Source: Amphiscolops sp. MND2022 (taxonomy: Eukaryota). Taken from it: a stretch of 64,000 nt of DNA. Below the pieces are notes generated by a model, which did no database searches, was not told the origin of the DNA, and was given only the letters and a program-made list of their open reading frames with translations. The position numbers and the translations under genes were made by a program. This document shows, in pieces, positions 14,265 through 50,917 of this stretch (within the stretch, counting starts at the first letter, position 1; each line of letters begins with the position of its first letter). The stretch lies in the NCBI GenBank assembly GCA_964187785.1, contig OZ076415.1, positions 46,934,001-46,998,000 of the forward strand, written 5' to 3'.

Positions 14265-14273
14265 CTTCCTCTC
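14265..14273 (-). promoter_or_regulatory. Polypurine tract of element A
   Basis: GAGAGGAAG directly before the 3' LTR on the minus strand. Confidence 0.8.
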
Positions 14274-25000: not shown

Positions 25001-25890
25001 AGGTTTTCTCATTTTTGCGAGTGCCAATAATTGTGGATCTATTCCGAGGAGATAATCAGCTTGTGACTCGCTCAAAGTTTCGAAATGTGCAATTTGTTTT
25101 TTGCTATTTAGCGTAATCTGGGAATCGGACAAATTGATCGCTGATATGTATATTTTATTGTCATTGTCCATCTTGCTCAGAGACGAAGTTAATGCAATAT
25201 TGGCTTTTTCCTCCAGATTCTTGTTTGGAATGACTAGTCCTGTGCAATTAGCGAACTGGTCAGTATATTTATCTAAATAGCATTCAAGGAGGACTTGTTG
25301 CTGCGGTCCAATATTGACTTTTTTGCCCAATAGGATAGGTATATTTTTCATTTTTTTCACAAATTGGCGTTTTTTTCCAGCGTCCGGTTTCATTTCATTG
25401 AGTTGAACCGTAAAGTCGGGCAGTTTCAGTAAATTGTTTTTGGGGTCTATCGTGATATTCTGTTTTTTAAAGAAAGAGTTTCCCAAAATTACACTATTCA
25501 TTTTTGATAGTACAAGGAAACTGTCTGTAAATGAATGAATTCCAATACAGAATGTGAGATTCACCTGATTATCAACTAACACTCGTTGTCCTGAAGCCAT
25601 ACGGACAGACGTAAAGTTTGGAGTTTCATTTTTAATTAAGTCGGGATGACTCAAACGTAATTCGTCGTATAAATTTTGAGGCATTGCATTAGCGCAGGCG
25701 CCTGTATCAATGAGGGCTCTCCGGTGAATGTTCGGAGAAAATTTCAATTTAACGTAGGAAAGATTTTCACCTTCAAGAGGCAAAACAGCGCATATATCTG
25801 GCTCTTTTAATTCTATGTTACATGTGTGTGGCTCATTAGACTGGTTTTCATGTAGAGAATTAGGCGGTGGAGTCTTGTGCTGCGTTTTTA
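21917..25890 (-). CDS. pol: Pol of element A (protease, RT, RNase H, integrase)
   Basis: PR ALIDTGA; RT LDCSQAYH, AQGL, QFMDD; RNase H LCDAS, YKEFLA, LTDN; IN H-H-C-C finger plus QIDLVGP, SDLG and VERSH. The frame is open back to the gag stop in the -1 frame. Confidence 0.95.
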
Positions 25891-27156: not shown

Positions 27157-27852
27157 GATTTTAAAGTTAAGTGTAAAATAGAGAGTGACGAATAAAACAA
27201 ACTAAGATTGTAGTGAAGAAAAAATTAAAAATTTGTCGATTAAAGTTTGTAAAATGCAGTCGAACACTGATGTGTAGTTTGTACTTCGAAAACTGAACAA
27301 CGAATACGAATATGATACTTTCAAGGCGAAACAAGAAAGATTTGAGATCAAATTTATAGCGTTTTTGCAACAATTACAATTTGCAGTGAAAGGAGGAAAT
27401 TTGCAAGTGGAAAAAAGTAAAAAGTTTGCAGAAATTCACAATTGAGTTTCAAAAAGAGTAACAGCTGTGAGACACAGTTCAGTTGAAAATGATAACAGTT
27501 GAAGCACTCATGAAATTCGAAATCCACACTATATCACTTTACTGCTTCAGAATTGAATCAAACTCACCGACTGTATTCGTACTGGCACTTTGAAGTCTTC
27601 ATGAAATTGAATACAGATATCGTAGCATCAAAGTTCGCCCAATTGGAGAAAGTCACCAAAAGTCATCGTTGATTGCTGTAGTTTCCAGTTTCTGCCGTGC
27701 CTTGTTTGTTTCAGTTATTACAGCCTCGTGGATCTGGTGCTGGTCGTGGATGATGTGGCTGGAACACCGCGGGTGGTTGGTCGGGGGTCTCGTGTGAGCT
27801 TTTCAACACAAAAGGGAGAGTTCTTCTCTGTATTGCATAGTGAGGCTTGTTT

Positions 27853-27866
27853 CGCTCCTGTCACCA
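27853..27866 (-). promoter_or_regulatory. Primer-binding site of element A
   Basis: TGGTGACAGGAGCG abuts the 5' LTR and is complementary to a tRNA 3' end (...GTCACCA); the tRNA identity was not determined. Confidence 0.8.
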
Positions 27867-28195
27867 ACTTATATCTCTACTTTTAAGATGAGTATTTATG
27901 GCTGGCGGCTGGATGCACGAATGGAGAGCAGTCAAGTCTTCGGAACATGGATCACAATCCTCAGATTAGTTCTCTTTTCTTATTGAAAACACAACCATGC
28001 AATTCTCTAGTTATTGTCAGCACTGATGTTTTTGTATTAATAAGTGTTATTATAATTATTTGTTTAAAGATGCTGATCAAATAGTTAAAAGGTTAAAGTT
28101 CTGTCATAGGTAAAATAGTTTTAAGGTCAAATATTTAAGAGTTCTTTCAATCAGTTCTTTTGTCCTCAACAACGGAATGTTTCAGCTATGTTACA
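27867..28195 (-). repeat. 5' LTR of element A (329 bp)
   Basis: Direct repeat of 13934-14264. Confidence 0.95.
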
Positions 28196-31489: not shown

Positions 31490-32147
31490 TCAATTGTCAA
31501 TTACACTTTGAGTTAGCACGTTTGGCGCGGCAGTGTTCATCCTAACAACCAAATTTAGCTCCTCAGTTATCTTCAGAAAGACGTTACGAGTAAAATTCCC
31601 TGGATCCATGCGACTTTGAATTGAAGTTTTCAGAAACTTTGCATGACTGAATAAACGTTCCAAATCAGAATTTGAAACGGGAATATCAGCCAAAATTGAC
31701 GTAACCAATTGATCAACTGGACAATTCCCTTGCTTCGCTGAATAGGCGTCAAATGAAATATTTATATCGGCAGTATACGGATGATCGTCAGCCCTTGAAT
31801 TTGGCGAACTATCGACATCAGATACCATACCAATCAATTTGTCATACAATGGACCAGATTTCTTAAATGCTTGTATGACAACGTAATTGGTACCACACCA
31901 CTTGTTAAGATGCTGCATAACGGGATTCCTAACGTCGGTCAGAGACTTTTCTTGTTGCAAATATGATCGAATGTAATCAACGCACTGAACATAAAAATCA
32001 AACGGGTGAGCAGATTTCTCAATTCCACATTGCAATTTTATGGTTACCTCGTACATTGGATGAAGTAAATCTCTTAGCTTCTTGATGTCGTCCCAATTAT
32101 AACTATTCTGAGTAAACGCGGTAATGGATTTTTGCAAAACTAAAAAT
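31490..32147 (-). pseudogene. Inner hAT transposase, C-terminal half
   Basis: DLLHPMYEVTIKLQ and the dimerisation domain DIPVSNSDLERLFSHAK...QSRMDP; in frame with the N-terminal half once element B is removed. Confidence 0.85.
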
Positions 32148-32867
32148 TGTAACGACCGGCTAGCGACGCACATCTAGGAAGAGGGACAATGCCTAGGATG
32201 CTTGAACAGGAGACCGTTGTCTTACTACATACCTAGACACTAGATTTTGGTCCCAAAATGGTCTCCTAGGGGACTTTTCTGACGTCTAAGGAGGCTTCTC
32301 AAATTAGAGCTCCGAAACGACGCGCCGGCACTTTCAAAGTCCGGACACGCCCCACAAGCCTGTAAAAACGTTCCCTAAGGTTTCTAGTGCGTTCCTACGA
32401 GTTCCTACATGCTTCCGAGGTCAAAAACGGTGATCAGCTGGAAAACTTAGTATTTGGCAAATAAGATATAAAAAGACCTAGAAGGTCAAACATCTTCCAA
32501 GTACCACAGGGGAAATATGGAAATAATAAAGGAAAAACGGGGATAAGCCCCAGTTACTTTACAGTTTTCAGTCCATCATCCATATTTTGCCTCTGGCAAG
32601 GCTCTGCAGATGTTGTTGATTTCCCAAGGAGATGGCACAACATACTGATAACCTTTCTGCTGATGTTTCTTCATCTTCTGGCAATTCTTCATCTTTTTCT
32701 GCAACTTTTTCACACGTGCTCTGTTTCTTGCTCGCTCTCCGCGTGTTTTCTTTTTTCTTTCATGCTTTTTGTACCTGCTAGGTCGGCCATCTTTTTTCTT
32801 CTGTTTTGACATCGCACATTTCGAATTTTTCATCGAAATTTTGGTCATGCCGGTGGCAGACGTTACA
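32148..32867 (-). repeat. 3' LTR of element B (720 bp)
   Basis: Direct repeat of 50197-50917; about 22 substitutions and 1 indel by manual count (about 97%). PPT GGGGAGGA at 32868-32875. Confidence 0.95.
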
Positions 32868-33417
32868 TCCTCCCCGGGCCGTAGTTTGTCGTCCACGGCA
32901 AACGAGATGATGGTAATACCCAGAGGGTGATAGCAATGCTGAGAGTTTTCTCAACACCTTAGCAAGGTTTCATTTTTTCTTACTTGTTTTCTTTCAACCT
33001 CCAAATTTCCCTGTTATCTCCTCGTACTAATATCAGTCGGTCTTACGACAACTTAAAAATTTACTTGACAAAACTAAAATTATGGCAGACGGTTTCAAAA
33101 ATTACATGCAATTCCACGAACTTAGGTTAAAATCTTTTTTCTAGAAGGTGCTCTGGCACTTCTCGGGGTAACAAAATTCGGGTCTTGGTAAGAATGGTCA
33201 ATTACTGAATTGGAGAGGGTGGGAACTGGCTCAGGGCCCACCCACATAGCATAGTTTAACTAAAATTTTAAGCATATAATGAGTATTGCTCAGGAATTCA
33301 GTGTCTTAGCACCAACAAAAATGAAATGGTCTAGGACCATTAGGATGAGGTTGTGTCCATTTGAGGGTAAGCTCTGATTTTCATTTGGTAGACGGGTCAG
33401 CGTCGGTTGTTGCTCCT

Positions 33418-36400
33418 TTACTCATCATTTTGGCTCTGTTGTGAGTCCGAAACGGATGATGTTACTGTTGACTGCTGATTCGTTGACGATTCCGCCACCA
33501 AGGGAGGATATTGCATTGAGTCGTGGATGGTGAGTAAGTTATTCAATTCTGCTTCGATATCAGCAGCGTCCATTTGCGATATTTCCGTCTCTGGTTCATC
33601 TTGGGTAGGGGTTGTGCCATCGGACAGAACGAAATTATCGTCCGTCATGGGTTCATCATGGGTTTCTGTGGCAATGGATAGATTCTCCTGGTCTTCCTCC
33701 ATTCGAGGCTCAGTTCCTTCCGAGGGCAACCCACTGGGTATTGTTTGCTGTGAGCAGCCAGGGGCAGCCGTATTTGTTACACTATTTTGTTCGGTGGTAT
33801 TTCCCTGTGGGAAGTCGGGCAGTTTGTCGGCCAATTCTGGATGGCCATACTGTACGAACAAATTTTTGAAAGTCTGAATTCCGCGTGCATAGTCTTCGCT
33901 GACAGAATCTCTTCGTTCCCTTTGTTTGTTGTGCAGATTTAAGAATATTTCCAGCGCGGCGCGCGGATTGTTTGGGACATATGTACTGATTGGTAAGGCT
34001 TTTCTATTCGGTTCTTTTGCCACTGAGGGCGTCTTGGCCTTCATGCGCTGAGACGTCCGGTGAACTGCAAAATCCACCAAGTCTGGGTTTGACCAGCATG
34101 ACGTTGCTTCTAGTATATGGGATGGGTGTGCGCGGGGATTGGTTCGATCACAGCACATCCTTGAAATGTCACATACATAAGGATATCGTAACCCACTTGG
34201 TTTTTCGCCATGGGCGGTCGTAGGGAATTGAAGTTGGCTACTACTCCGCGGTAGGTGGGCTCCGGTTGGGTTCCATCTGTCGTTACAAAGTGTAGTGTGG
34301 AAAAGGTGGGAGTATTCGCTGCCATACGCAAGACTTGGGTCGGGTATCTTAGTACCATGACGGCGCCAAAGATTGGCCAGACGATGGGAGCAATTAGAGG
34401 TATTAAATCCTCTGTTTCCACCAACATGAGAGTGGCCATTTGTGAGGGAAACAAGAAGCCAGGGAGGTGGTTAGGTTCTCTATTGATGGCCGGGTTTTCA
34501 TCCAGAGGATGCATAATACCCGCGACATTTACCCAAGTTGAGTAGATCCACGTGAGAATGGCTTCAATGTTCAGTTCTAGTCGTTTCTTCAATCGTAGGG
34601 GACCCGCTGGGTCTAAGGCGCCTAAGATTGCTTGCAGCCAGTTCTTCTGATTTTGAGCATATACCAGGTAGCTGAAGAGCGGTAAGTGTCCTTTGTCGAA
34701 GATCAGCTTCTGCAGAATGCCTGAGGGTCCTCTATAGACTGCGTGCATGCCGATCGCCATTGAATAAGCCAATATTTCGCTTATGGTGGTTTTTTGCATT
34801 GCCTCCACATATAGGCGTCTTTGTTGGTCATCGAGGTTGAATTCAGCTTGGACCAAACTTGGGAGCCAAAAGGGGGAGATATTGTAGAGGAATACAGGGA
34901 ATGGGATTTCCCGCCGCAGGGCGACCTGATTTAGAGTTTCACGTAAGGCTTTGTGCCAAGTTTGGTAAGTGTGATTTGGTTCTGCTTCGTTCTGTCTTGC
35001 CAAGCCTCGTGTCATTACCATCAAGAGTGTCAAGGTGAGGGACGCCATGTCGAGTTTGGCATCTGTTGCTATGGCTGCAATGGGGAACACAGTAGTGTTG
35101 GTCCGTTCCGCCTTGATCATCTCTGTTTCCTTGAAAAGAGCTAGGAGCTCTTTATGGAATTTCGGATCATGAGTCTTTTCATCGAGGGTGGATTGGTCTC
35201 TCCTTTCAAACCAGAGGTTATCTATCAGGTGTTTTCTCTCACTTTCGTTTGGGTCAAATACTTTGCGCACACCGTTTTCATCTAGGGATCTGATGGACAT
35301 TTGCATCCCATAGTCGTATGCGGTGGCTTCGTCAACAATAATCTGTGAGTTGCCTTCATATCCCGTATATCCTTGAATAGCCTTGGATATATCGGCCAAG
35401 AATGCGGGGTACGATGCCTCACAGGGGCGCCACGTGGTTACGTTGATCCTTAAGTTCGGAGCAACGATGTAGAAGTGCAAGTCTCTTGCATAGGATGCTT
35501 CCAGCACCAGGTACAAGAATTGTTGCAACGCTCTCGGAAGATAGATGTACCCAGGGGGTGACACGAAGACTGTTCCTGTGTTTGGTTTCTTATTTTTCAT
35601 CATTGTGGCAATATGGGACATTGTTTCTACGTACGCGGTGACTTCTTCGGTGACAAATCCTTCAGTGAATCGAGTGCTCAGCGTATCGAAGTGTCGCAAT
35701 GATCCTCGCAGGGCGAGGTGGTCGATTACGTTCGAGTATACCAGGATTGGTGGAAGAGGTATTGTTTCTGCCGCCGCTGGTGTGAACATTTTGTCGGTTA
35801 CCTCTGCCATTTCATTGAGTGTGGTGCAGGGCATGTTCATTAGTCTAACATCCATCAGAGTATTGTTAGAATTGTACGATGATTTGATGGTCGAGTCTAC
35901 GAAGAGAGCGATTCTAGTTTTTTGCAATAGGTCTTTTCCCATTGGCACCAGGGTGATGGGGTTCCTTGCATAGTTTTTTGATTGTAGATGACTTTCTCCG
36001 AATCTGCCGAGTCTCTGACGAGCTAGTCGCTTGTTGGTTGCTTGGAGCGGTTGTAGGTACGTTGAGTTACTGTTCTGCAACTCTCTCCTGAGACGCTCGA
36101 ACCATGGCGGGACTCCTCCATCATTGGTGAATATCGGTGGCTTAACTGGTCTGTTGTAAACTACTCCAATGTTTGCCTTCTCTATATTTCGCTGAGTGGT
36201 TTGGTCCCCTTTGCTATTAGCGCTCGCAAATTTCTCTCTTGGGGGATTTTCTTCATCAGGCATATTTGGTACTTCGCGTTGAAGACGCACTGCGACCCTC
36301 GCCGTTATATCCAGCTGCTTCATTTCTGCCGCAGTCAGTAGCTCTCTTGCGACCTTTTGCCTCCTGGCCTCTGGCTGGCTAGGGGATGGGGCTGGAATTC

Positions 36401-37333
36401 CCTTGTTTGATCTTGAGTTAGATTGCCTGTCTTGTTCTCTAGCTCTCTTGGTTGCGTTTAATTTGTCGCGAAGGTCTATTGGAGCATTGTTGGCCTTTCT
36501 TTCCTCTCGCTGCTCTTCTCTTTGCCGTTCATGCAGTTTTGGATCTTTTTGAAATCCTATCAGTCTGCTGGGTTCATTTCGAGCAGGTTGGGTGTTGGAG
36601 GTGGAGGGAGTTAGTTCTTCATATGAATCTTGGAACGTGACCTTTCTGTCGGGCGAGTTTCTTTGGCTTGTTCTTGTGTTGTTACTTGGTTGCATTCGAT
36701 GGGGCTTACTTGCACCCCTCCCCCCTGAAAGGTGGAAGGAAGCATGAAGCCAGAAGTAGATGGAGTGAGCGAGCTGATACTTACGGATGCCAGAGGCATA
36801 GGTGGAGTAGGGATTGGAGGTGGCACTAAGGGTAGGATGCAATTGAAAGTTATAGTCTCGGTGGGTGGAAGCTGAATCATGGTTTGTGGTGGGGTTGGCT
36901 GTGGAGCTTGGAACAAAGGTTGAATCGTTGGGGGAGAGATTCTGAATGATCGTTTCTGATCCATTGGAGGCCTTTCAGGTTCTCCATAGAGCATGTGGGA
37001 GCGAGGGCCAATAAGATTATGAGTTAAGTCATAACCATGCCAAACGCCATCGCGGAAGGTAGCGGAACGCTCAAGCGGCCCGATGCTACTCGTGATGGTT
37101 AACAGGACTTCTGGGTGCGAAGCTTCAGCTTGCATCTGTGCAACCATCATGGCAAAGCCAGCGATCATGGTGGGGGTGGCCCCATCTTGTAAAGCCTGTT
37201 GGACTAAGGCTAGTTGGTCGATTCGACCATTAACCTCGCCCACTGGTGGAAGAGTGTTAGCAGGAGGCATACGAGGTTGGGGATTCTGTTGGCTGCTGGG
37301 TGCAGGCATGCGGTTGCGTGATGAAGAGTCCAT
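33418..37333 (-). pseudogene. ORF3 of element B: about 1300-aa protein of unknown function (2 frameshifts), containing a possible SGNH-hydrolase-like segment
   Basis: Overlapping same-strand ORFs 36611-37477, 34110-36842 (910 aa) and 33418-34158 chain together. P/Q-rich N-terminus, folded central region and acidic/S-T-rich tail. Confidence 0.7.
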
Positions 37334-37675
37334 TGATAGCACTGATAGGGAATAGGGTGATATCGATGAAAATGAGTAATGGTGCAATTTAGGAGAGCTG
37401 CGCAAGGGCGAAGCAACAGGATAAAACTGAAAAGCAAGTTGCACATGAATAGAGAGAAGTTTCATAGGGTATATCAAAAGAGTTAAGAAAGGTATACAAA
37501 AGGTTAAAACTTAAAAATACAGAGGAAGTGCTAAGACGACTTGTAGCTTAATAGAGTGCAGTCAATAAAAATCTTAGGGACTAGTTCGCACGTATCGAGG
37601 AAGTCAACAAGGAAAGTGGGATGGTCTTTCGGAAGAATAAGGAAGGTGGGCCTCTGGCCCTGCAGTTATGAGGAC

Positions 37676-40600
37676 TCAACCAGCAGTGATGTCAATAGAA
37701 GAATTTGATGCGATTGAAACGTAGACTCTATCGTGGAGTATTATTTCTAGATTCGACCCGAAAAAATGGTCCCGGAGTGTGGCGTACCAAGTTGGTAGGA
37801 GATTGATCGATCGTTCGTGATCATAGATGGGTATATGAATTTGGGAAATTCCGTGTTGATGGAGTTGGTGTCGGAGGTGGTTGAGGCATGTATCTAGGGT
37901 TTCGTGCAGGAGTGGGTGCTTGTTGGAGGCTCTGGTGCATAAAAGGAAAAGTTGATTGTTCCAGGGTGCCGTGTGGGAATATTGCAAGCAAATGGCCATG
38001 CCAACCGAAGGTTTTAAACGGAAGATGGCTTCTTGTCCATATTCGCGAATGATATATCGAATAGTCGCCGATTGGGATTGGAGGACAACACAACACTAGT
38101 GTGCCAGAGGCTTGTAAAATATCCGTGTCAGAGTAATCCATGGCACGTGGGTCGGCCGAATTTTCGGTTGTGATATGAGCCATTTTCCAGTTTCCTCTGC
38201 ATGATTCTCTAAGGGGTTCGACATCAAGTGTCGAAAAACTGCTTTGCGATCTTCCCATATTGTACGATGCATGGGGCGGTTACCCATGTGTATGTACGAC
38301 CAGCTGTGCATTACGGAAAGTGCTTCTAAGGGAGAGATGGGAGTTTCGGGTGTGTATGTTAGTCGGTCGAAAATGCAAATCTTCGTTTGTCTGCAAAATA
38401 TAATGGATATCAGTTGCAACCAGTGTTGGCTCAAGAATTTGTCGCGGTAAATGTCGGCGAGATGAAAACATAGGGTGTCGCTTGTCTCTACAAGGGTGCG
38501 TAGATTCTCTAAGCACAGTAATAATGTAGTCGGTGAGACCACCGAGGAGTCGTCGAGGGAAGTGACTAGGAGCCACCATCCTGTGGATGGTTGATATACG
38601 TCACCCGGAGGGGAAGTGATGTGATATTTCTTCCATAGTTGGTTGGCGGTGATGCAGCGAATCATTTGGGGGTTGTTGCAGGTATCGTCTAGCTTACCGA
38701 ATAAGAATGAGGGTGGTAAAGGGGGAATGGTTGCGGCTAATGTGAATTCAAGTCCACCCTTTTCATGAGTTGTCCACTCTTTGAAGCGATACGTTGGACA
38801 ATTAGAAGGGGAAAATTTATGCATTTGTTTCAGAGTGGATTCTAGAGTTGGTATTGATTCAGATTCGGTGCTTGTAAAAGTCTTCTCAATTGTTAAGATG
38901 ATGTGTCGGATGGTTGGCGGGGTTTTGGGTTTTTGTAGCTTTGCTCGTATATTCAATATTTTGTGTTGTGGATGGTTTGCCGTTTGTGCTAAGATGATTT
39001 CGCAAGCCGGAATCGTCGCTCCCCGGGCCAGTCGCTGATTCGGGGGTTCCGTTGTGACTAGCTGGATGCAACTACAGTCACGGGAACCACAGGTTCCGCA
39101 TCTATAATTTGGCGCTCTGTTGGCTCGGAGTTGATAGCGGGGCGCTTGTCTGGAAGTATCATCTAGTTGGTTTGATTGAGTAGGGGTTGAACTCTCAGGA
39201 ATCTGCTGGAGAGTCATGGCTCTGTCAAGCGTCCTGAGTGCGGTCCTGGAGGAAAATCGGGTTCTTGGGCCTCTTTTGTGCCGTGTGGTTGGTCTCCGGG
39301 AAGACGTAGTAGTTCCGCTTGATGACTTGGGTAGTTGGTTTCGGCGACCGGGGGGTCTGCCTCGAGGTCGACCTCTCCTGTTGGTAGTTGTGGGTGGTGG
39401 GTTTTGACTCGTGATCTGGTTGTCGGGTCCGACATTATGTTCTTGTGGTTCAGTGGTTTGGATTGGATCAGTCGGTACGTTGGGATCCTTTGTTTGTTGG
39501 TTAAATAGGGGGAAGTTGCTTAAGGTATCCGTGAGTGAGGGGTTAGATAGTAATGGAGCTGAAGTTCCAGAGGGCGATGGTATTAAGCTTTCGGTGAGCG
39601 TTGGTGGTCGTATTTCCTCCTGATCAGAAAATAGTGGTTCTAGATCGTCGACTTCGGAGAATACTACCTGGGAGGGAGAGGTCATGGGAGGAGGTCCGGG
39701 CGCTTCGGCCTCAGAGTCTGATTCGGATGGGTATCCGAATTGGCTGAATCTCCTGCGCGGGACCCCTTGTTCTAGGGCAGTTTGAGTACGTGTCTGGATG
39801 GTACGAGGAGGGACCGGTCTTGTGGGTTCCAATTCGAACGATGCCTCAGAGAGTTGTTCAGGTAGGAAGGAGTCTCTAGAGATATCGGAGGTAATTTCTT
39901 CGTTAGTGTCTTCCACGTATGGATCAGCGATGATAGCTACATTTTGATCCGGTCCAAAAGGTTGGTAAGTAGTCCAGTCCCAGGGGGCTGGTACGTGTTT
40001 CTTTAGTCTCTCGTAGTGAACTTTTTGACCCGTGTCGAGTACGTAGAGACGTCCATCTTGTAGTACATCGGTGACTTCATAGAGTCCGCGCCAAGCGCGT
40101 ATAAGCTTGCGAGTACCACCTTTGGGGATTATGTGACAAAATACCCAGACAGCGTCGCCGACGGCATGCGCTTTTGCTTTCAGGTGGCGGTCGAACTTTA
40201 GCTTTTGTCGAAGCTGAGCTTGATGAGTGTTTCTTCGAACCAATTCATGGATTTCTCGTTGCCTGGCCAACAGGTGTTCCACGAACTCTTCTTTGGAATC
40301 AAAGCCTCGCGCTGCGAACTCTGGGTATATAAATGATAGTGGGATAGATTTTTCTGCGCCATGATGGAGCATGTAGGGTGAAAACCCTGTAGTGGCGTGT
40401 CGGGTGGAATTATATGCGCCTAGGACTCCATCAATGTATTCATCCCAGTGTTGCATTCTGCGCGATGTGTAGACTCGGAGCAAAGTGAGCAAAGTTCGAT
40501 TCTGTCGCTCCACGAGTCCGTTCCCTCTGGGGTGTGCTGGGGTAGATGTAACTTTGGTTACTTGAGAGGCTTTCATAAGTTCCTGGGCGATCTCAGCGGT

Positions 40601-41704
40601 GAAGTTAGTCGCATTGTCTGATTGCATCCTAGCAGGAGTGCCATGTGTGGCAAACCATTCATTTAGGATAATTTTTGCTGTGGTTTGCGCGTCATATTCG
40701 TCGTGAGCGCATGGGACTGCTTCCGGAAATTTGGTAAAATGATCTATTATTACCAAAAGGCCGGTGTTGCCTGAGTCGGTTTTGCAGAGCTTTAAATGAT
40801 CAAATTGAACCAGGTCGTTGAAATTGCTACTATTGATGCTTTGCAGGGGGTAGCAAGGATTTCCCGCTGGGTGCTTTGCTTGTTGACAGGTTAAGCATTG
40901 TTTGATGTGGTTTACTACGTCCCTTTTGATTCCCGGCCAAGTGTGTCGTTCTTGTATTCTGGCCAGCACTTTTCCCACGCCTTGATGTCCCGATTCATCG
41001 TGTGCTCGGTACAAGATTTCGTGTTGGAAAAGTTGCGGCATGATTATCATGCAAGGGCGTACGTGGAGAGCACGTTGTTGAGGAACGTAATTGACGCAGA
41101 GTATGTCGTCAGGGTTTAAGAAGAGTAGATCCTTTTTTGATGGTAATACCTCTTGGCGAAGTCTTGTATTTCATCTGGGAACATTGGACCTTCTAAGGGC
41201 TCGTTCTTCATGAGTTTCTTCAGTGCCAAGAGATGTACGTCTCTATTCTGAGCCATATTTGGTTAGGTGGTGTTCGTGCATTTCTGCTTCGATGATTCTC
41301 AAAACGTCTGCTTGTTTTTGACATTCAACAGGGAGTGCCCCTAGAGTTGGATCGGGTTTAGTGGTGTCTATTCGTGCCGGAGGCACTCTTGTGGTTATGC
41401 TCAAAATTCGGTTAGGTCGTTCGTTTTCTTCAAGAGTCGGCGTGGTTTCCCATTGAATTTCGGGATACCAGGGGGTATCCCCGGTTGGCTCTTCGGGCTG
41501 TTTGCTCTTTCGTTTTTTCTGAAGAATGTATAACAAGGGTAGTTGAGCTCGAGCTTCTGGAGGGAATTTTGGGTTGTCTGGAATTAGATGACCACGTTTG
41601 TCGAAGTATGGGACTGTGGGGAGTTCGTTGTAGTCTTTTTGTGACATGAAATTGAATCCTTCGCTTACCTCTGGTAGCTTTTCAAGGATTTGTTCGCGAA
41701 TAAT
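37676..41704 (-). pseudogene. Pol 3' part of element B: integrase, long linker and two degenerate macro-like domains
   Basis: IN zinc finger (AHDESGHQG...CLTC) and core (QFDHL, QSDN, VERQNRTL). The frame is broken by TAA at 41705 and by frameshifts near 41240, 38140 and 38000. Confidence 0.85.
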
Positions 41705-44700
41705 TTAGTTGTTGGTGCGCTTGCTGAGTCCATCGACATTTCGGTGTTGCGTACGCGGTCTGTGGATCGTTTTGAAATGATATTGGTCTAGACGTGCGAT
41801 CCAACGGCCAATCATGGCTTGGTCCATGGAGTAGGTTTTGAGCCATGACAGGGCTTGGTTGTCTACGCGAAGCGTAAACTCTCTACCTGCTAGGTATGAG
41901 TGGAATTTCTCCACGAAGTAAAACACTGCATACATTTCCAGCTTGGGGGCACCATAGTTCAGTTGGGTCTTGGTCAGTGATTTACTGCCGTATACTATTG
42001 GTCTCAGGATGGTTTTGCCATTGTATTCTTGTTCTTGATGTAGAACACCTGCGATTACTACCGTGCTGGCGTCTGTATCTAGCACGAACTGTCCTTGTTC
42101 ATTCGGTGCAGCTAGAGTGGTAGCGTCGGATAGGGCTTCTTTCACCGAGTCGAAGGCTTCTTGGTGTCTTTCTTCCCAACAGAAGTGTTGATTCTTCTTT
42201 AGCAATTCCTGCATGGGTTGCATCTTGGCGGCGTGGAATGGGACGAAATCGTGATAGTAGTTGGCGAATCCTAGGAAGCTTTGGAGTTCTTCTTTGTTCC
42301 TTGGTGGCAACCACTCTCGGATTTTAGCCACTGCTTCTGGGTCGGGCTTGATTCCATCAGCTGATACTATTCGTCCAAGATATTTGGTTTCCGTGCGCAT
42401 GAAGTCGCACTTTTCTGCTCGCATTTTGAAGCCTGCCTCTCTGAAACATTCGAATACTTCTTTAATTCTCATTATGTGGTCTTCGATTGTTTCGGTTGCA
42501 ATTACAATGTCGTCAATGTAGGCCATGACGACACTCCCGTGTCTTTGTTGGATTTTTTGTAGCGCTCTAGTGATGGATCGTTGGAACGTGGCGGATGCAT
42601 TGCATAGCCCGAAGGGCATACGTCGCCATTCAAACAAACCCAATTCACAGGCAAATGCTGTTTTCCTTCTATGCTTCCTGCTTTTCTTCAGTGGTATTTG
42701 CCAAAAGGCCCACTCTAGGTCGATGCTTGTGAAGATCTTAGCGTTACCTATTCTGGACAGACTTTCGTCTATTGTGGGAAGGGGGAAGGCGTCTTTTACT
42801 GTCACGTCGTTTAGCGGTCGAAAGTCGCACCAGAAGCGAAGTTCGCCTGTCTTTTTCTTTACCATTACTATTCCACTGGCCCAAGGCGAGTAGGAGGGTT
42901 GGATTAAGCCTAAGGCTAAGAGGTTCCTTACTTCTTGATTGGCTTTGGCGGCCTTGTCTGGAGACATTCGCCTTGCGCCCTCCCTGTGGGGGATAGCTTG
43001 TGGTTCTAACTCAATACGATGTTTTGCTATTGCACATTTGCCTATGTCGGCCTTATGTTTCATAAAAAGGTCGTCGTACTCGTTTAAAACTTCTGCTAAT
43101 TGATCTCTTGCTCCCTCCCCCCAAGACGAAAGGACAGAGGACAGGTCTGGGCCTGGTATTGGTTTTAATAGGTTGGGGTCGGTTTGCGCGCGTTTTTCAA
43201 TTTCCGACATTTCCTCTTCCGACAACTCAGTAGGCGATACGAAGTTTTGTGCGAAAGAACTGAATTCACTGCTTGTGTCGTCAAGATCAACAATACTAAT
43301 ATTATTAACTTGTTCTATCAGAGGTATGGAGGTTCCATCGGCTTGGTCGACCGAAAACGGTCTAGACATAAAAACGGTAGGCTCCGCCTTGCCAAGGACA
43401 GTTTTGCTTGGTATTTGCAAGTTTTCGGTAGCGGTTTTGTTTCTTATGGCTAGGTACACCGTGCCGTCGTCTCCCACTGAAGTTAGGGTGTCTTCTGAAA
43501 TAAAGGAACTTCGGTTGTACATCCCGCTGGGGCGTATCATTACATTACAGAAACGGTATTGGTTGGGGTCTTGTGTGATGACCTGTGCTATAACCAACTT
43601 ACGTTCGAAAGGTCCTAGTACAACTTTGTCGGTGGACACTACCAAAGAAGGTTCATGGTCACTAACCTCATGGACAGGTTTGAAATGGCGTGGAGTTTTT
43701 GGGTCTCGGATTGTGACCCTCATCGCGGTCAAGTCCACGAGGACATTATAGGTGCGTAAACAGTTGCGTCCTAATAGGAAGTCTTCAGCTCCTAGGTGGT
43801 CAGCTATGACGATAAAGTTGATCTTCAGTGTGTGGCCACCCAATTGGAAGCTCACATTCTCAGCCATGCCGACAGTCGTTATTGTTTTGCCGTTCGCTGC
43901 GTATAGCTGGACGTCATACGGCATGAGGCTCAATGAATGGGCGGAAGCAATCTTTTGGTATGCGGCAAGGGAGAGGATGGAGACACCTGAACTCGTGTCG
44001 ATCATACCATATAAGGGAATGGGTTCCTGGAAGTTGCTGCCAAAGGCAACTACCAGTGATGCTCGTTCGTCAATGCGAGCTTCCCCTTGAGTGTCTTGCA
44101 CTCCAATGTTATAACAACTCAACTCCTGGCGACCCAGGTATAATCCCTGTGGGAAATAACCTTCTACGACTACGATGGCGTCAAATTTCATGTCGACCCC
44201 GTCTACGTTCATGGCCACTGGTACTGGAGAAATTGTCTTCACTTTTTGGATTGGTGCTAATTTGGTCTCGTCCTCCCGGGTGAAGTGCGGTAACGGTCGA
44301 GCGGTGATTGTATACTTGGCGTTTCTGCACAGCTCTTCCTTTAATTGCGCTAGTGTCAGTTCGGGCCGCGATTTTTGTTCAGCCGAGAGGAGTAAATGTA
44401 TAGATATGAGTGTCTCGGTGCAGTCCGGGGCGGGTGCTTCCAGCGTGGTAAGCACTTGTTTTTCGCCGCAAGTAATGACGACGGGACGAGAAGGGCCTCC
44501 GGCCTCTGCTACCGAGATTACTCTAACTTGATCATCCTGTGGTACGCCGTCAAACTGGTTGGTATGTGGAGCATACCATGCTGCCCTAATTTGTTCTTCT
44601 TGTCTAGGGTATTCTGGGGCCATACATTCTGATGCGGAATGCTCAGTGCATCCACAATTAACACAGAAGGCTACAGTCCCTTGGATAGGTAGTGATGCTG

Positions 44701-46735
44701 GGTATACTTCGTTATTCACCCCGTGTGGTTGTGATGGGCAAGTCCATCCACCGGATGGGTTGGTGTGGCAAGAATATACTTGTTGTTGTATTGGTTTTCG
44801 TGCACGCTCTTTGAGTGGGCAATCGATCACGAAGTGTGATGGGTCGCCACAGCTAAAGCATGCTCGTTGGGGTTGTTGTCGGTAGGGTGCCGGTTGTGGT
44901 GGAGGTGGAACTTGTTGGGGTTGCTGTATCGGTGGTGGAATTGCCTGGGGCACTTTAGGTTGTTGATTCGGTTGTGGAGGCTGAGGTTGTTGAGGCGGAG
45001 CCATTTGATAATTCTCTGGACGATTAGAACCGCGCTTGCGCAGGTATTGTTGAACTGTGAAGCGAAGCGCTTCTACTGTTGGAGGTGCTTCAACGTACTG
45101 TTCTTGCGCATACATCAGTGCGAGGTTTCTTTTTAGTTCGAAGTTGCGTACACCTTCGATGAATTTTTGCTTTATTTCGTATCTGCGAACGGTCACCTCC
45201 TCGTTAGGGTAGCCTTGGCTGCGCAGATCTTCGAGGGCATCGAGATATTGCATGTAGTCTTCTTCATTGTTCTGGTTGCGTGTTCGGAATTGTTGCTGTA
45301 TATGGATCTTGCTTGACCCAGTTCCGAATCGTCGCGCCAGTAATGTAAAGACTTTTTTGTCGGTGTCTCTTTCCGCCTCGGATTTATTGGTGATGTAGTC
45401 TCGGGCCTCGTGTTCTAGATACTCTATTATAGTCCAGGCCTTGTCGAGGGGAGTCGCTCTGGCATGTGCCTTCTCTAAGTGACGTTTCGTCAACATCATC
45501 CATCCGTCGGCGTTTCCGTCCTTGGTCCCTCGATATTCCGTGGGTTTGTTCTTCGATTTTTTCACCGCGAGCAGCGGTTCCAAGCCTTTGGACATTGCGG
45601 TTGAAATCGCCTCCGCCAATGCTTGTCGTTGGCTAGTTCTTGGGGTGTCGGGTGTTGCGCTTGGCGTTTCTGGAAGTTGTTCCATCTCGTTGTTGTCTTG
45701 TTCTAAGTTTCTCTTTGTCGTGGATTTTTGCTGCGTGCTAGTTGCCACTGGCCACGGGATCAAATCTAAGTATGCTTGCTTGGGGAAGTTCTCGCTGATG
45801 TTGGTCCTGGCGGTATAGTAGTTTGATTCTCTTGTAGTCATGCCGCTTGCGGGTGAACAATAGTCTCCCGTTGTTGATGCACCCCGAGCAAAAGGGTCAA
45901 ATGAGACACTGGTTAGTGGGTCCGTGCCCACATCGCTGGTATCTGTTCTGATTACTCTCATCATCTTGTTGGTTCGTGGTTGATCTCTTTTGTATGTTGC
46001 AGGTGGTATCAACTTCAGAGGTTTATTTTTCGCGGCGTTGGACTGGGCTATCTTGCGGTAGGTGGCTTGTGTTGGGTTTGGGGCAGTGCTGGTGGAAGGC
46101 AGTTCGTCTGAGTGAGAGGTCATTGGCGCCGCTGGCGTTATTTTTGCTTGAGCCGCTGCAGTTTGGGCTGCCATTGCTCTCACTCCTAATGTCAGGTCCT
46201 TCATAGTGGTCATCAGATCTATCATTCTGGTGTTTGCGTCAGTCTCCTTTCGTTGCATGAGGTCTGACATCATTTTCATCCGTTCGTCTGCTTGACGATC
46301 TCTTTCTTTCATCACGGCAGACATTTCGGCTATGCGTGTGTCTGCCATGTTTTCTCTTTGTTTTATCAAGTCATTGAGAGAGGCCATGGATGCTTCCAAT
46401 CTTCCTTGGCTTTGACGTCCTCCAGCCTGTATTTCTAGCAGGCCTTTCCTCTTTTCATCCATGTCCCTCATAATGACATCAGCTCTCATCACGTGTTCAG
46501 CATTTTCTCGTGACAATCGTGAATGTACTTGTGACAATTGGGCCAGGCTATTTCGAAAATCTTCTCTCGCGGCTTGTGATTCTTTTGTGATTTTGGTTAC
46601 GGTCGAGTCTGGGGCCGTGCCTGCACTGGCTCTGGAGTTAGGTGTGTAGTTTGGTGTGTCCATTTGCCTTGGGACAAGATCCAGGTTTCTTGATGGAGGT
46701 GTCCTAAAGACGTACCGCAATTGGTTGTCTTCCAC
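41705..46735 (-). CDS. gag-pol: Gag-pol fusion ORF of element B (1676 aa): gag, knuckles, protease, RT, RNase H
   Basis: Coiled coil; gag core (LEHEARDYI...LARRFG); CFSCGDPSHFVIDC and CVNCGCTEHSASEC; protease MIDTSSG; RT IDLEWAFWQ, RMPFGLCNA, YIDD; RNase H LDTDAS, KLEMYA, RVDN. Ends at a premature TAA; the frame continues in phase. Confidence 0.92.
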   Translation of the reverse strand: MEDNQLRYVFRTPPSRNLDLVPRQMDTPNYTPNSRASAGTAPDSTVTKITKESQAAREDFRNSLAQLSQVHSRLSRENAEHVMRADVIMRDMDEKRKGLLEIQAGGRQSQGRLEASMASLNDLIKQRENMADTRIAEMSAVMKERDRQADERMKMMSDLMQRKETDANTRMIDLMTTMKDLTLGVRAMAAQTAAAQAKITPAAPMTSHSDELPSTSTAPNPTQATYRKIAQSNAAKNKPLKLIPPATYKRDQPRTNKMMRVIRTDTSDVGTDPLTSVSFDPFARGASTTGDYCSPASGMTTRESNYYTARTNISENFPKQAYLDLIPWPVATSTQQKSTTKRNLEQDNNEMEQLPETPSATPDTPRTSQRQALAEAISTAMSKGLEPLLAVKKSKNKPTEYRGTKDGNADGWMMLTKRHLEKAHARATPLDKAWTIIEYLEHEARDYITNKSEAERDTDKKVFTLLARRFGTGSSKIHIQQQFRTRNQNNEEDYMQYLDALEDLRSQGYPNEEVTVRRYEIKQKFIEGVRNFELKRNLALMYAQEQYVEAPPTVEALRFTVQQYLRKRGSNRPENYQMAPPQQPQPPQPNQQPKVPQAIPPPIQQPQQVPPPPQPAPYRQQPQRACFSCGDPSHFVIDCPLKERARKPIQQQVYSCHTNPSGGWTCPSQPHGVNNEVYPASLPIQGTVAFCVNCGCTEHSASECMAPEYPRQEEQIRAAWYAPHTNQFDGVPQDDQVRVISVAEAGGPSRPVVITCGEKQVLTTLEAPAPDCTETLISIHLLLSAEQKSRPELTLAQLKEELCRNAKYTITARPLPHFTREDETKLAPIQKVKTISPVPVAMNVDGVDMKFDAIVVVEGYFPQGLYLGRQELSCYNIGVQDTQGEARIDERASLVVAFGSNFQEPIPLYGMIDTSSGVSILSLAAYQKIASAHSLSLMPYDVQLYAANGKTITTVGMAENVSFQLGGHTLKINFIVIADHLGAEDFLLGRNCLRTYNVLVDLTAMRVTIRDPKTPRHFKPVHEVSDHEPSLVVSTDKVVLGPFERKLVIAQVITQDPNQYRFCNVMIRPSGMYNRSSFISEDTLTSVGDDGTVYLAIRNKTATENLQIPSKTVLGKAEPTVFMSRPFSVDQADGTSIPLIEQVNNISIVDLDDTSSEFSSFAQNFVSPTELSEEEMSEIEKRAQTDPNLLKPIPGPDLSSVLSSWGEGARDQLAEVLNEYDDLFMKHKADIGKCAIAKHRIELEPQAIPHREGARRMSPDKAAKANQEVRNLLALGLIQPSYSPWASGIVMVKKKTGELRFWCDFRPLNDVTVKDAFPLPTIDESLSRIGNAKIFTSIDLEWAFWQIPLKKSRKHRRKTAFACELGLFEWRRMPFGLCNASATFQRSITRALQKIQQRHGSVVMAYIDDIVIATETIEDHIMRIKEVFECFREAGFKMRAEKCDFMRTETKYLGRIVSADGIKPDPEAVAKIREWLPPRNKEELQSFLGFANYYHDFVPFHAAKMQPMQELLKKNQHFCWEERHQEAFDSVKEALSDATTLAAPNEQGQFVLDTDASTVVIAGVLHQEQEYNGKTILRPIVYGSKSLTKTQLNYGAPKLEMYAVFYFVEKFHSYLAGREFTLRVDNQALSWLKTYSMDQAMIGRWIARLDQYHFKTIHRPRTQHRNVDGLSKRTNN

Positions 46736-46816
46736 TTGTGTTGGTTGGTTGTCATTTGGTTTGGTAGGTGCCGTGGATGGCCCTACTTTTTGTGCGTATC
46801 CGCTTAGAAAGGGGTT

Positions 46817-47290
46817 TTAATCGTTTCGATTCGCGTTAATGTCTAATGCGTGGGAACCCAGCGGGTTCTTGTTTATCGAAGGAGTGCGGGGTGCCGCTAC
46901 AGGAGTTGAGTGATTGCTGGTTTGTGATGCCGTTTCTTCGGCTGCACTTGTTTCATACGGGGGTTTTTTATTCGAGTTTGGCCACTCCTCTAGGCTGTAG
47001 TCAGTGACTTCTAGAGGGGGCCACGCGTTGTTTCGCGTGGTGCTTCCGGTACTATCCACTGGATCAGTACTATCAGGGGAAGCTTGCGACGAACCGAGCT
47101 GTTCGGCTGCGGTTGTCATCTCCGTGTTTTGTTCCGTGTTGGAAATATTGTCAGACACGAGTTCTGAAAACATATCTGCAATAGTTGGTACTTGAGGGTT
47201 GTCGGTAAGGGTCTCCGAATGGGTTGCGTCCTCTATTACGTTACTAAAAGGATTAGTAGCATGGAAGCTTTTGGGAGGGTTCCAATTCAT
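46817..47290 (-). pseudogene. Probable N-terminal gag segment of element B (S/T/P-rich), separated by a frameshift
   Basis: 157-aa ATG ORF directly upstream of the gag-pol ORF, with similar composition. Confidence 0.45.
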
Positions 47291-50164
47291 TCTGGTTAGT
47301 TTTTGGCATGTGGATTCTGATTATGAACAAAAGGGGAATTTTTGAACAATGGTATTTTTGGTTTATTTGTCTTGCTCGTCCCCCCGAAAGAAAGGATGGA
47401 AAGTGATAACAGGTGCTCGTTGCAAATTTTCAAAATTAAAATTAACTGGATTACATGGGTGTGGTCGCGCTGTAGTTGGGGTGCGATCATAAGACCGCGG
47501 TTAACAAAAAGTTTGTACAAGCTTTGATAATTGGGCTAGTGTAATTCTATGTACTAATACTAACTAAAGTTTCGTTCCTTGTCTCCACTGAGTGGAGGGA
47601 AATGGATTTTTGATTTATCAAACAGAAAAAGTTTTTTTTTTGAAGACTCTTTACGTTCTACTTGCTAATCTACTTTGGAATAAGCTATGGAGGAGCCTAT
47701 TGAACTGTGGCTAGTGCTGTGGGCGGTAGATTGGGTTGAATGGTAATGGTCGAGACAGATGGTCTAAGCGCAGTGCGCTCTTTCGACTGGCTAAGCTTGT
47801 CACTCACCTAGTCTTTCCGACTTACGGATTCGGGTACGGTGGGATGGATGGGGATCGGAACGGGACTCGGTGATTAGTATGGAAGAAGGCGTTTAGTTTG
47901 GAAGGTAACTTTGATTGAGGCTGTTGCGTTGATGGTGCTACAGTTTCACTTTTTTAGCAAATTCGGTAATAAAGTGCGCAATTTCTTTGGTCAACTGGGC
48001 ATCTTTTTGGAGGCTCTTAGTTTTGGGAGGACTGCTATGGCGGTGAATGCGACTCTGTTGGGAGCGTAGGGGGTGCTCTTTATGTTTAAGAGTTATGTTC
48101 AAGTCCTTATATGGGTCGTTTGGGACTGAAAGAGTGCCGTGCTCTGGTCAATTTTCGCAAAACCAGCGGATTTGTTGTCAATCGGCACGTCTGGGAAGGG
48201 TGAAAATCACTTCCCGGGCTCGTAGCGATTCGAAAATTTCACACCGTATACTACACTAGCTGAATCGTGGGAAACTGAATGCCGATTGTACCAAAAGTTA
48301 CGCTGTGGGTGTTGCGGCCACTTAATATTGTTCTTTGAAAAATTGACTATGTCGTGTAATTTGCAAAAAGTGGTCAAACTCGCCTTGTAGGCGTCCTGGC
48401 TACCTGAAATTTTGCGTGCGAGCGTAACTTGTGCCCACGTAATGGAAAAATACGGCGATCGATACTTGGCTATTCGAGGTGACAAAACCTTGATGTACGT
48501 GAGGTATTACTTTTTCCGGCCAAAATTCACAAAAATGTCGATTTCTCAGCTTTGGCTAGCCACTGGCTGCTCAAATTGCATAAATCGTCGGAATTTAGTG
48601 CAGTCCGTAAGAAAATGCAAGAATTTTAGTGCTGGGATACCTGCAAGGTATTGCACTATGCTCAACTAAAATTCAAATCTTTCGACATTTTCACACTATT
48701 TTTGAGCAAAACTTCTGCTAAGATTTCTCAATCACTAGTAATGCTAGCGCTACGAAACTTACACCACTAACGTAACTTTTTATGGTCTACTAGATGGCGC
48801 AGTCCGTTTGAGGCTGCTTCTACTAGGAGAGATTTCGACCTGTGCTGGAAGCACTTCTACATGGTTCCCAAAATGTCGCAAAAATAACGCGTTTTCGACT
48901 ATTTCTCAACAACCACTGGTTGGAATCACTCGCGGTTTTCTGCGTTTGTAACGTTACACTCTGTAATAACAGAAAATGGGCAAGCGAAACCTGGTAGGTT
49001 CCAAATAAGGTCTCTCAAAAAACTTTCAAATTGCACTTTCTACACTCTCGGAATAACACTGGAATAACGTGTTTTCGCTAAGAAATTTCTATCTGTCGGT
49101 TCTTGGACGTTCGGGATTGTTCCAATAGTACTGTACGGAAATATGACAACTAATTTTTTTGGGGGGGGCTGGGGTTCGTTCAATTATTATTTTTGATGTT
49201 ATATCTCTCAGGTCTATGGGGTCCTCTACTCAGGTCTGTGTATATCAAGAGAAACAAGTTGTTAAAGTTTCAATTTCTATTGGGGAGCCTTAAAAAGCTA
49301 CTTGGCAAAAGTGTTTTGTACTACCAAGCTAGGGGAAAAGGTTTTTGGGCTGATTCAGAAGCTTGGAAGCTAATGTCCAATGCTTTGCTCTTGTCAAATT
49401 GGGTCAAAATGGCCAAATTTGACGATTTTTTTAACAAAAATCGCTGAATTTTTCACTGTTTTTGGACAATTGGCCCCACAAAAGTTTTTGTTCCTGACCC
49501 AGAGGGTCTGTTGGAACGTTTTTCTAGTATTCCCACTGGCCTCACTCTATTTGACAAAACATTGGCTTTCAAAATTGAAAATTATGGAGTTTGAGCTATA
49601 AATAACGTTATTTTCGAGGTTTTCGAGCTCAAATTTTTTAATAACTGATCAGAATACCCTTTGGGTATTTTTCTCAGTTAGTTATAATGGGAATAGGCCT
49701 GGGAATACTCTTTTTGGGCCGTTAAATTAAGAAAATGGACGATTTCACCCGTTTGACGTGGAGTACTGCAATCACAGGGGCATGGGAGGAGTAGTCGTGT
49801 AGGACGTCGTCACGTCGGCACAGCTGGTGGAATCCTTTAGCATTCGTCCTCTCTGTCCCCATACATTGCAAATTAGCTGAAATCAAGCTAGAAAACCCTT
49901 TAAAACACGTTCCGGATAGGCCGGAACAGCTTTTTTTTAGGTTTTAGTAAGGTAAAAGAGGGTACACTGTCAGAAACCGTTAATTTCTCTTAGTAGACCC
50001 CAGAAACATGCGGAAAACGCAGGAATAACATTAGTACAAAGCCCAAAGGGCCAGAAAAAGGTAATAAAAAGAATCTAGGGTTCTCCCATAGGTTTTCCTA
50101 GATCTGGTCCCTTCGGGGCCGGAAAGCAGAAGTTGCTCCTACTTGTACGCAAAATGAAAAATAT

Positions 50165-50180
50165 CCCTCTGTGGTCGCCA
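50165..50180 (-). promoter_or_regulatory. Probable primer-binding site of element B
   Basis: TGGCGACCACAGAGGG, complementary to a tRNA ending ...GTGGTCGCCA (Arg-like); 16 nt from the LTR. Confidence 0.6.
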
Positions 50181-50196: not shown

Positions 50197-50917
50197 TGTA
50201 ACGACCGGCTAGCGACGCACATCTAGGAATAGGGACAATGCCTGGGATGCTTGAACAGGAGACCGTTGTCTTACTACATACCTAGACACTAGTTTTTGGT
50301 CCCAAAATGGTCTCCTAGGGGGACTTTTCTGACGTCTAAGGAGGCTTCTCAAATTAGAGCTCCGAAGCGACGCGCCGGCACTCTCAAAGTCCGGTCACGT
50401 CCCACAAGCCTGTAAAAACGTTTCCTAAGGTTTCTAGTGCGTTCCTACAAGTTCCTACATGCTTCCGAGGTCAAAAACGGTGATCAGCTGGAAAACATAG
50501 TATTTGGCAAATAAGATATAAAAAGACCTAGAAGGTCAAACATCTTCCAAGTACCAAAGGAGAAATATGGAAATAATAAAGGAAAAACGGGGATAAGCCC
50601 CAGTTACTTTACAGTTTTCAGTCCATCATCCATATTTTGCCTCTGGCAAGGCTCTGCAGATGTTGTTGATTTCCCAAGAATATGGTACAACATTCCGATA
50701 ATCTTTCTGCTGATGTTTTTTCATCTTCTGGCAATTCTTCATCTTTTTCTGCAACTTTTTCACACGTGCTCTGTTTCTTGCTCGCTCTCCGCGTGTTTTC
50801 TTTTTTCTTTCATGCTTTTTGTACCTGCTAGGTCGGCCATCTTTTTTCTTCTGTTTTAACATCGCACTTTTCGAATTTTTCATCGAAACTTTGGTCATGC
50901 CGGTGGCAGACGTTACA
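50197..50917 (-). repeat. 5' LTR of element B (721 bp)
   Basis: Direct repeat of 32148-32867. Confidence 0.95.

Follow-up and report, generated by a model that had tools for sequence, protein, structure and literature searches.

The 64,000-nucleotide stretch analyzed here (the window: Amphiscolops sp. MND2022, GenBank assembly GCA_964187785.1, contig OZ076415.1, positions 46,934,001 to 46,998,000) carries on its minus strand a retrotransposon with long terminal repeats (LTRs) that measures 18,770 bp from LTR to LTR, in agreement with the 18.8 kb given in a preliminary description of the locus. The LTRs run from TG to CA and are 96.8% identical (22 mismatches in 721 columns), and Pfam recognizes gag, protease (PR), reverse transcriptase (RT), RNase H (RH) and integrase (IN), in this order, which is the organization of the Ty3/Gypsy group. 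The pol gene of this copy is disrupted by stops and a frameshift and ends near 37676. Between there and the purine tract, in the position of env, lies a further open reading frame (ORF), here called ORF3, which is present as three minus-strand frames (36611-37510, with the first conserved ATG at 37333; 34110-36974; and 33418-34470). Both deletions that break it (Table 1) show up on comparison with open sister copies, so that the three frames belong to one broken gene; they had rightly been read as chaining into one protein, and the motifs and hydrophobic stretch then quoted are present. The product is indeed giant, but the length of about 1,300 amino acids (aa) first given for it is that of the damaged gene, because the window ORF3 carries the two deletions; open copies encode about 1,360-1,415 aa counted from the first ATG.

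A search of the genome with the ORF3 core returned 3,114 first-look candidates, which are not copy numbers; 128 were scored, giving 130 rows, and 13 of these rows hold stop-free frames of at least 1,390 aa. In all ten copies picked for long frames ORF3 is a single frame (1,397-1,440 aa, stop to stop), and an LTR pair, 95.4-99.7% identical, was found in nine of them. Ten copies from divergent families also have ORF3 frames (1,166-1,451 aa) located after an integrase, with full LTR pairs in nine (98.7-100% identical); nine of the ten are 78-93% identical to the window in RT, and their SGNH part (described below) is 31-75% identical to that of copy L034. ORF3 thus diverges much faster than RT. 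The ratio of nonsynonymous to synonymous substitution rates (dN/dS; Nei-Gojobori, whole ORF) lies between 0.08 and 0.28 in ten of the 14 pairs, synonymous sites being saturated in the other four, for copies that had been selected for open frames; it falls as low as 0.03 in the SGNH part and exceeds 1 in no ORF3 region. By these comparisons ORF3 is under purifying selection and belongs, as a conserved accessory gene, to a large Gypsy clade; nothing in the open sister copies or their dN/dS speaks against the preliminary description. Among 1.84 billion representatives searched, 307 relatives were found. Three of them (P0124, P0099 and P0077) probably come from other organisms, because they match the Amphiscolops genome at 28-36% at best, and P0290, a relative of this group, has the full ORF3 architecture in 1,541 aa; a metagenome scan found no relative. 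One further locus (L077-L078, G000:C1:88927602-88947601) combines an open ORF3 and LTRs that are 98.8% identical with an integrase almost directly after gag, protease and RT being missing.

For structure prediction, residues 385-1230 of a natural open copy were submitted to AlphaFold2 with 55 sequences. The model has a mean predicted local distance difference test (pLDDT) of 69.8, with values mostly of 80-97 over a five-stranded alpha/beta domain. Alignment of the model with VIA-align to 48,161 chains gave a top 50 made up mostly of SGNH/GDSL proteins (best Z 10.5, with a root-mean-square deviation of 3.7 over 194 aligned residues, followed by 10.3 and 10.1), and a repeat run produced a similar list, again dominated by SGNH/GDSL proteins. 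Foldseek returned nothing significant (E never below 0.04), yet SGNH proteins were among its top rows; a viral fold library gave weak SGNH rows only, and in the Atlas, clusters in which 21-30% of the members are Lipase_GDSL_2 matched the SGNH part with a score of 0.89, which we take as a lead only. The ORF3 core is predicted to adopt the SGNH alpha/beta fold, as its motif spacing had first suggested. The specific tie once proposed to the esterase of the ORF1 protein (ORF1p) of CR1/L2 long interspersed nuclear elements (LINEs) found no support: the ZfL2-1 structure 4c1b is a weak Foldseek match (rank 7, E 0.34, TM score 0.37) and is not among the top 50 VIA-align rows, so that a link to the LINE esterase would be possible and is unsupported by the model comparison.

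The catalytic set of this domain is altered, as had been suspected, and most clearly in block V, which the preliminary description had missed. With block positions assigned by motif order and model strands rather than by side-chain geometry, block I keeps its Asp in all 14 sequences that cover it and the Ser after it in 13, one relative having Thr. The block II Gly is present in only one of 17 sequences. Block III reads N-x-x-D, the oxyanion Asn position being hydrophobic in 17/17 (Asn in none), and a His follows the block III Asp in 15/17. In block V all 17 have Arg instead of the catalytic His, and no acid is conserved three residues ahead. As modelled, the domain is SGNH-like in fold and lies outside the catalytic SGNH/GDSL family as defined. 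It might still be an enzyme of altered chemistry, in which Ser, the Asp-His of block III and the invariant Arg act on an anionic substrate; the near-invariance of Asp-Ser, Asn, Asp and Arg, the frequent block III His and the low dN/dS of the SGNH part would all fit. We nevertheless consider this very improbable, for neither oxyanion residue is kept and the canonical Asp-x-x-His is missing; the Ser has been replaced in one relative, and two lack the block III His.

Outside the SGNH core, the small N-terminal domain (dN/dS 0-0.58 over 10 pairs) is also visible in P0290 and P0291, which are relatives of P0164. A basic motif resembling a nuclear localization signal (NLS) stands ahead of the SGNH domain in all seven lineages of the Amphiscolops genome; the remaining 617-910 residues of these lineages contain no such motif, nor was one found in P0291. 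Folded alone, the conserved helical region reached a pLDDT of 54 and had no match (best Z 5.4, to a 57-residue hairpin; Foldseek E at least 0.5), a modelling result that demonstrates neither a known nor a new fold. Neither Pfam nor a sequence search of the PDB matched ORF3. Profile hits to designer pentatricopeptide repeat proteins were rejected as sums of weak repeats, with E above 2 for each stretch, and Atlas scores for the helical part (at most 0.84) were disregarded.

Relevant to the expression of ORF3 are the splice-like signals that flank RT, RNase H and integrase. When the leader, gag and pol of the near clade (the far clade being the other of the two compared) were scanned for donors, the single best site was 43666, just after the protease. 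Over 6,003 aligned pol positions in both clades, 52 have GT in at least 85% of copies; the donor at 43666, with GT in 17/17 copies, has a mean score of 7.94 out of 9 against 6.12 for the runner-up, the score being a crude match to a consensus that may not be the host's own. The encoded amino acids vary (E-V-S, Q-V-G, Q-V-S) while AG|GT(A/T/G)(A/G)GT persists, which argues that the bases themselves are under constraint. The GT is kept in 19/21 far-clade copies, in 62/64 copies of the L119 family, and in 96 of the first 100 among 532 matches from the near clade. A second candidate donor after RNase H (41668) was rejected because the far clade has not kept it; a strong donor at 47807 occurs in the window's own family alone. 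On the acceptor side, alignment of the spacer between pol and ORF3 reveals that a pyrimidine tract and a YAG are conserved ahead of the ORF3 ATG. The frame from this AG to the ATG is open in 36/37 loci, spanning 31, 35 or 43 codons, and upstream of the AG it contains stops, in three loci at the AG itself. Position -4 is T in 394 of the exact matches to the exon-start motif, which number 397, and the remaining three read TTCCAG. In the far clade the acceptor is TTTTAG or TTTCAG, two or four codons ahead of the ATG, mostly with CTAAC or CTAAT about 15-20 nt upstream, which matches the branch-point consensus; in several far-clade families the open ORF3 frame starts at the very base that follows the AG. 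Every distance from acceptor to ATG (2, 4, 31, 34, 35 and 43 codons) is a whole number of codons with an open frame. The donor is in phase 0, as is the acceptor, and in the two open copies counted the distance from the gag ATG to the donor is a whole number of codons (1,197 and 1,213), with 1,423 and 1,399 codons from acceptor to stop and introns of 6,218 and 6,249 nt. We consider it likely from these signals that splicing from the post-protease donor to the pre-ORF3 acceptor occurs. They point to a fusion with Gag-PR rather than to the free-standing product in the env position that had been assumed.

Natural controls are provided by lineages without ORF3. A sister family, with at least 261 motif matches, has CAG|ACGAGT at the donor site and was predicted to lack ORF3; none was present in the nine copies fetched. 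In the one copy with a resolved LTR pair, the LTRs are 99.5% identical and the 3' LTR follows about 1.1 kb after pol. The RT of the sister family is 93-98% identical to that of an ORF3-bearing family, and RT-RNase H and integrase trees place it within the ORF3-bearing lineages (support 0.96 and 0.77). The sister family (L157-L176) also includes a tandem array of five copies about 14 kb apart at G000:C1:34049007-34105401. Three near-clade rows with GAA in place of GAG were fetched together with 11 others, 14 copies altogether; L177 and L178, with the weakened donor GAA|GTCAGT and an open pol, both lack ORF3, a second loss. Judged by sequence and tree placement, two young lineages have independently lost ORF3, together with the loss or weakening of the donor. 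Because they transpose without it, ORF3 is not required in cis and is an accessory factor rather than an envelope, which agrees with the earlier verdict that it is not a classical env. That ORF3 is a counter-defence or host-manipulating cargo, with the splice merely its route of expression, would suit a protein that diverges much faster than RT, stays selected and is dispensable in two lineages. We hold this quite unlikely: no region has dN/dS above 1, and in the searches made neither known silencing suppressors nor other families matched.

Several observations, besides the crudeness of the donor score, count against a fused product and its linked loss. Spliced retrocopies were not found in the genome with three search patterns: the first gave three matches, all unspliced variants; the second gave 10 against seven in a control, of which one was an unspliced copy and nine did not match the element; and the third gave 261, the 15 that were read being of the unspliced donor-less sister family. 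The L076/L119 family keeps the donor, yet the 19 copies shown have no clean phase-0 acceptor, and its best site would end Gag-PR seven codons later, overlapping the ORF3 ATG; the decayed L113 and L186 also lack a phase-0 acceptor where it is expected. Over the first 12 codons past the AG, third positions show no excess of substitutions (12, 9 and 10). The joint loss rests on just two events, with the placement support given above, and individual copies are discordant: L179, an old decayed copy, keeps ORF3 with a mutated GT; L181 keeps the donor without ORF3, being decayed and lacking integrase as well; L185, L186 and L187 keep ORF3 although the GT is mutated; and L188 keeps it with GAG|GTCAGT. 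Decay after insertion presumably accounts for L181 and L185-L188. Lastly, ORF3 retains its own ATG in all lineages seen, nearly always with G at +4, which fits separate translation. ORF3 might accordingly be translated alone from this ATG, by splicing from a leader donor, trans-splicing or an internal start, with the post-protease donor serving, for example, to supply surplus Gag-PR. The conserved ATG and the L076/L119 family speak for it, as do weaker donor-like sites in the leader (best 48403, mean 6.7 in the near clade); moreover, ORF3s of LTR elements are described as typically separate units expressed from spliced messages (PMC5408684), and splicing for Gag only is known in copia (PMC5580714). 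We judge exclusive separate translation unlikely, as it leaves unexplained why all distances from acceptor to ATG are open whole codons and why the donor has decayed in both ORF3-less lineages. The fused and the separately translated products could coexist.

Returning to the spliced fusion, we propose that unspliced genomic RNA would yield Gag-PR-RT-RH-IN, and that removal of the intron of about 6.2 kb would put ORF3 in the place of RT, RNase H and integrase, giving a Gag-PR-ORF3 polyprotein of about 2,600 aa from which the element's protease may cut ORF3 free. With a common Gag-PR head, ORF3 could co-assemble and be cleaved out as Pol is, in keeping with general retroelement biology, and its conserved ATG would leave space for a second, free form. 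That the clade makes two alternative polyproteins on one Gag-PR head, with ORF3 co-assembled and processed like Pol and with lineages dropping ORF3 and donor together, seems to us fairly probable. A soluble ORF3 would then use its conserved pocket of Asp-Ser, Asn-x-x-Asp and Arg, and its basic motif, on the element's own ribonucleoprotein (RNP), in the nucleus or in the particle. A non-catalytic role in handling this RNP, as for CERV of the Cer1 element or the dead SGNH domain of Oskar, is suggested tentatively and by analogy, as a possibility short of probable; we favour it because ORF3 seems to be a soluble protein, its basic motif is conserved and its architecture corresponds to that of CERV. 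It has to be set against this role that it depends on analogy and a four-residue motif, that the SGNH domain is not basic (19 K/R against 21 D/E), and that the fold assignment leaves about half of ORF3 uncovered.

The same dead esterase might instead bind lipids, a hydrophobic helix anchoring ORF3 so that particles are tethered to membranes or vesicles and spread without an env. A C-terminal extension of Gag would be expected inside the capsid, which speaks against such tethering, although fusion to Gag would place ORF3 in particles. Active-site mutations do not abolish liposome binding by the ZfL2-1 esterase (PMC3905857), and it is this independence from catalysis that keeps lipid binding under consideration. 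A hydrophobic stretch forms the top Kyte-Doolittle peak (1.6-2.3) at the same place in all 23 proteins scored, about 390 aa from the C-terminus. It contains two to four prolines in most versions and is modelled as a kinked helix with pLDDT 50-75; summed insertion energies are unfavourable (+2.7 to +6.9 on an insertion scale). Moreover, no hydrophobic segment follows the first ATG as a signal peptide would, the furin motif R-x-[KR]-R is absent from 14 of 23 ORF3 proteins and has no shared position in the rest, and the SGNH domain is neutral. To judge from these sequence properties, the transmembrane anchor earlier proposed is unlikely, and so, in our estimate, is tethering to lipids. The joint loss of donor and ORF3 does not discriminate between RNP handling and lipid tethering. 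Taken as a whole, the explanation to which we lean, on balance, is that of a conserved accessory ORF3, expressed as a spliced Gag-PR-ORF3 and with a non-catalytic RNP role.

Table 1. Features of the ORF3-bearing Gypsy element, in positions of the window.
Feature	Position	Strand	Remarks
5' LTR (TGTAACG...CGTTACA)	50197..50917	-	96.8% identity to 3' LTR; 3-bp duplication (ATT) at flanks
TGG motif, primer-binding-site-like	50163..50180	-	16 nt past LTR; in 13/13 leaders shown, with small variants
Non-coding leader, about 2.9 kb	47291..50162	-	many conserved blocks (alignment of 7 sequences)
gag + protease	43667..47290	-	first coding exon of the predicted spliced RNA; window copy has one stop near 46817
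Phase-0 splice donor GAG|GTTAGT, conserved	43661..43669	-	just 3' of protease; intron start 43666
Predicted 6,240-nt intron	37427..43666	-	RT, RNase H, integrase and long C-terminal pol extension; splicing predicted from sequence
Pyrimidine tract + CAG acceptor	37427..37438	-	first exon base 37426; 31 open codons up to ATG 37333
ORF3, three frames in the window copy	33418..37426	-	1-base deletion near 36647, ~230-base deletion near 34208
Small conserved N-terminal domain of ORF3	36930..37246	-	26-73% identity across families
Basic KRAR motif, NLS-like	36438..36449	-	in low-complexity linker; consensus as quoted in PMC10309623
SGNH-fold pseudo-esterase domain (predicted)	35345..35924	-	Ser codon 35892-35894; Arg instead of His at 35427-35429
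Conserved all-helical region, no recognised fold	34210..35160	-	contains hydrophobic stretch 34350-34406
Acidic, fast-evolving tail of ORF3	33421..33830	-	30 D/E vs 4 K/R in the last 137 aa of one open copy
Polypurine-tract-like sequence	32868..32887	-	directly before 3' LTR
3' LTR	32148..32867	-	pairs with 5' LTR

The element interrupts a hAT-like transposase frame, whose parts lie at 50626-51942 and 31490-32173 and which matches Dimer_Tnp_hAT weakly (E 0.024). Its target-site duplication (32145-32147 and 50918-50920) is 3 bp long, as in 11 of 13 correctly anchored pairs from sister copies, the other two having 4 bp; four of 17 pairs were mis-anchored and dropped from this count. Gypsy elements usually have duplications of 4-6 bp, so that 3 bp is shorter. 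The leader keeps long conserved non-coding blocks across families despite the saturated synonymous sites of ORF3, and these blocks are candidates for a structured RNA element or a sign of recombination. Near the N-terminus of Gag a motif FHATNPF (approximately 47254-47275, minus strand) is kept across the near clade within otherwise variable sequence; NPF is an EH-domain-binding motif. Pol runs about 700 aa beyond integrase, with a final conserved region of about 330 aa (37676-38800, minus strand; 87 invariant columns in 10 sequences) that is also kept in the ORF3-less lineages; by eye it resembles one or two degenerate macrodomains, for which Pfam and PDB profiles gave no support. Elsewhere on the minus strand of the window, positions 13934-28195 hold another Gypsy element, unrelated to the first and about 14 kb long, whose LTRs are nearly identical. 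Its gag (25888-27201) and pol (21917-25939) are separate, and a dUTPase match lying between its protease and RT is weak (E 0.004). At 54367-60303 a third pair of LTRs, of about 92% identity, encloses decayed frames that are BEL/Pao-like by eye. Beside the frame hit by the ORF3-bearing element there is a further hAT-like transposase remnant (52158-53630), also judged by eye.

Among known systems the closest in architecture is CERV, the product of the Cer1 LTR retrotransposon of C. elegans, which is required to export unspliced RNA (PMC10309623). Like ORF3, CERV is a large non-env ORF in the env position, and in Cer1 as in the present clade no stop separates gag from pol. CERV is spliced to N-terminal sequence shared with Gag, for which ORF3 has conserved in-phase signals and the joint loss; it carries a presumably inactive G-protein-like domain and a candidate NLS, where ORF3 has a dead SGNH fold and an NLS-like motif (PMC10309623). 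The differences are that CERV, of 517 aa and five exons, has only short peptides in common with Gag, whereas ORF3 would be joined across a single 6.2-kb intron with all of Gag and the protease kept, and that splicing and export are demonstrated for CERV and predicted from sequence in the present clade (PMC10309623). The likeness appears architectural, and no homology was seen, no test aimed at it having been made. In rotifers, Vesta LTR retrotransposons have a GDSL/SGNH ORF3 and Athena-L has inactive GDSL derivatives (PMC5408684). Vesta resembles the present clade in carrying an SGNH ORF3 in a retrovirus-like LTR element, absent from some lineages; its esterases retain the catalytic residues, while ORF3 has Arg for His and embeds the domain in about 1,400 aa, and near-neutral intragenomic evolution is described in that study, in contrast to the purifying selection found here (PMC5408684). 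The esterase of ZfL2-1 ORF1p and of CR1/L2/RTEX is likewise an SGNH fold in an accessory protein of a retroelement, but it has an active triad (D279/H282/S143, with N195/G165), whereas ORF3 lacks the His, Gly and Asn; it also has a basic membrane-facing surface and belongs to a non-LTR element in a gag-like position, not to an LTR element in that of env (PMC3905857). The OSK domain of Oskar shares with ORF3 a non-enzymatic SGNH fold and is described as RNA-binding; it lacks the Ser that ORF3 keeps (PMC10792757). Its structure 5a4a was not among the listed Foldseek or VIA-align matches to the ORF3 core. Drosophila copia and plant Ty1/copia have a single gag-pol ORF, like the present clade, and a pol-removing intron near the protease, as is predicted for it; their spliced RNA yields Gag only, where the present clade would append a module of about 1,400 aa, and in Arabidopsis no such conserved splicing was found for Ty3/Gypsy (PMC5580714).

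The literature searched, mostly without subscription papers, yielded no description of a Gag-PR-ORF3 splice or of an SGNH ORF3 with Arg for His. Already known are SGNH ORF3s in LTR elements and inactive GDSL derivatives (PMC5408684), pol-removing splices in copia (PMC5580714) and a Gag-linked protein in the env position (Cer1); the parts are therefore known and the arrangement is apparently new. The expression and the function of non-env ORF3s in LTR elements are for the most part an open question, and the present sequence supplies for it exact splice coordinates, hundreds of young copies, and two ORF3-less lineages as controls. The pocket in which Arg replaces His is retained between sequences of about 30% identity and makes a clean target for the study of pseudo-esterases. 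If the splice is true, a retroelement would have a route for bringing a large accessory protein into its particle; this would also be the second case, after CERV of Cer1, of a dead enzyme fold in a Gag-linked protein encoded in the position of env.

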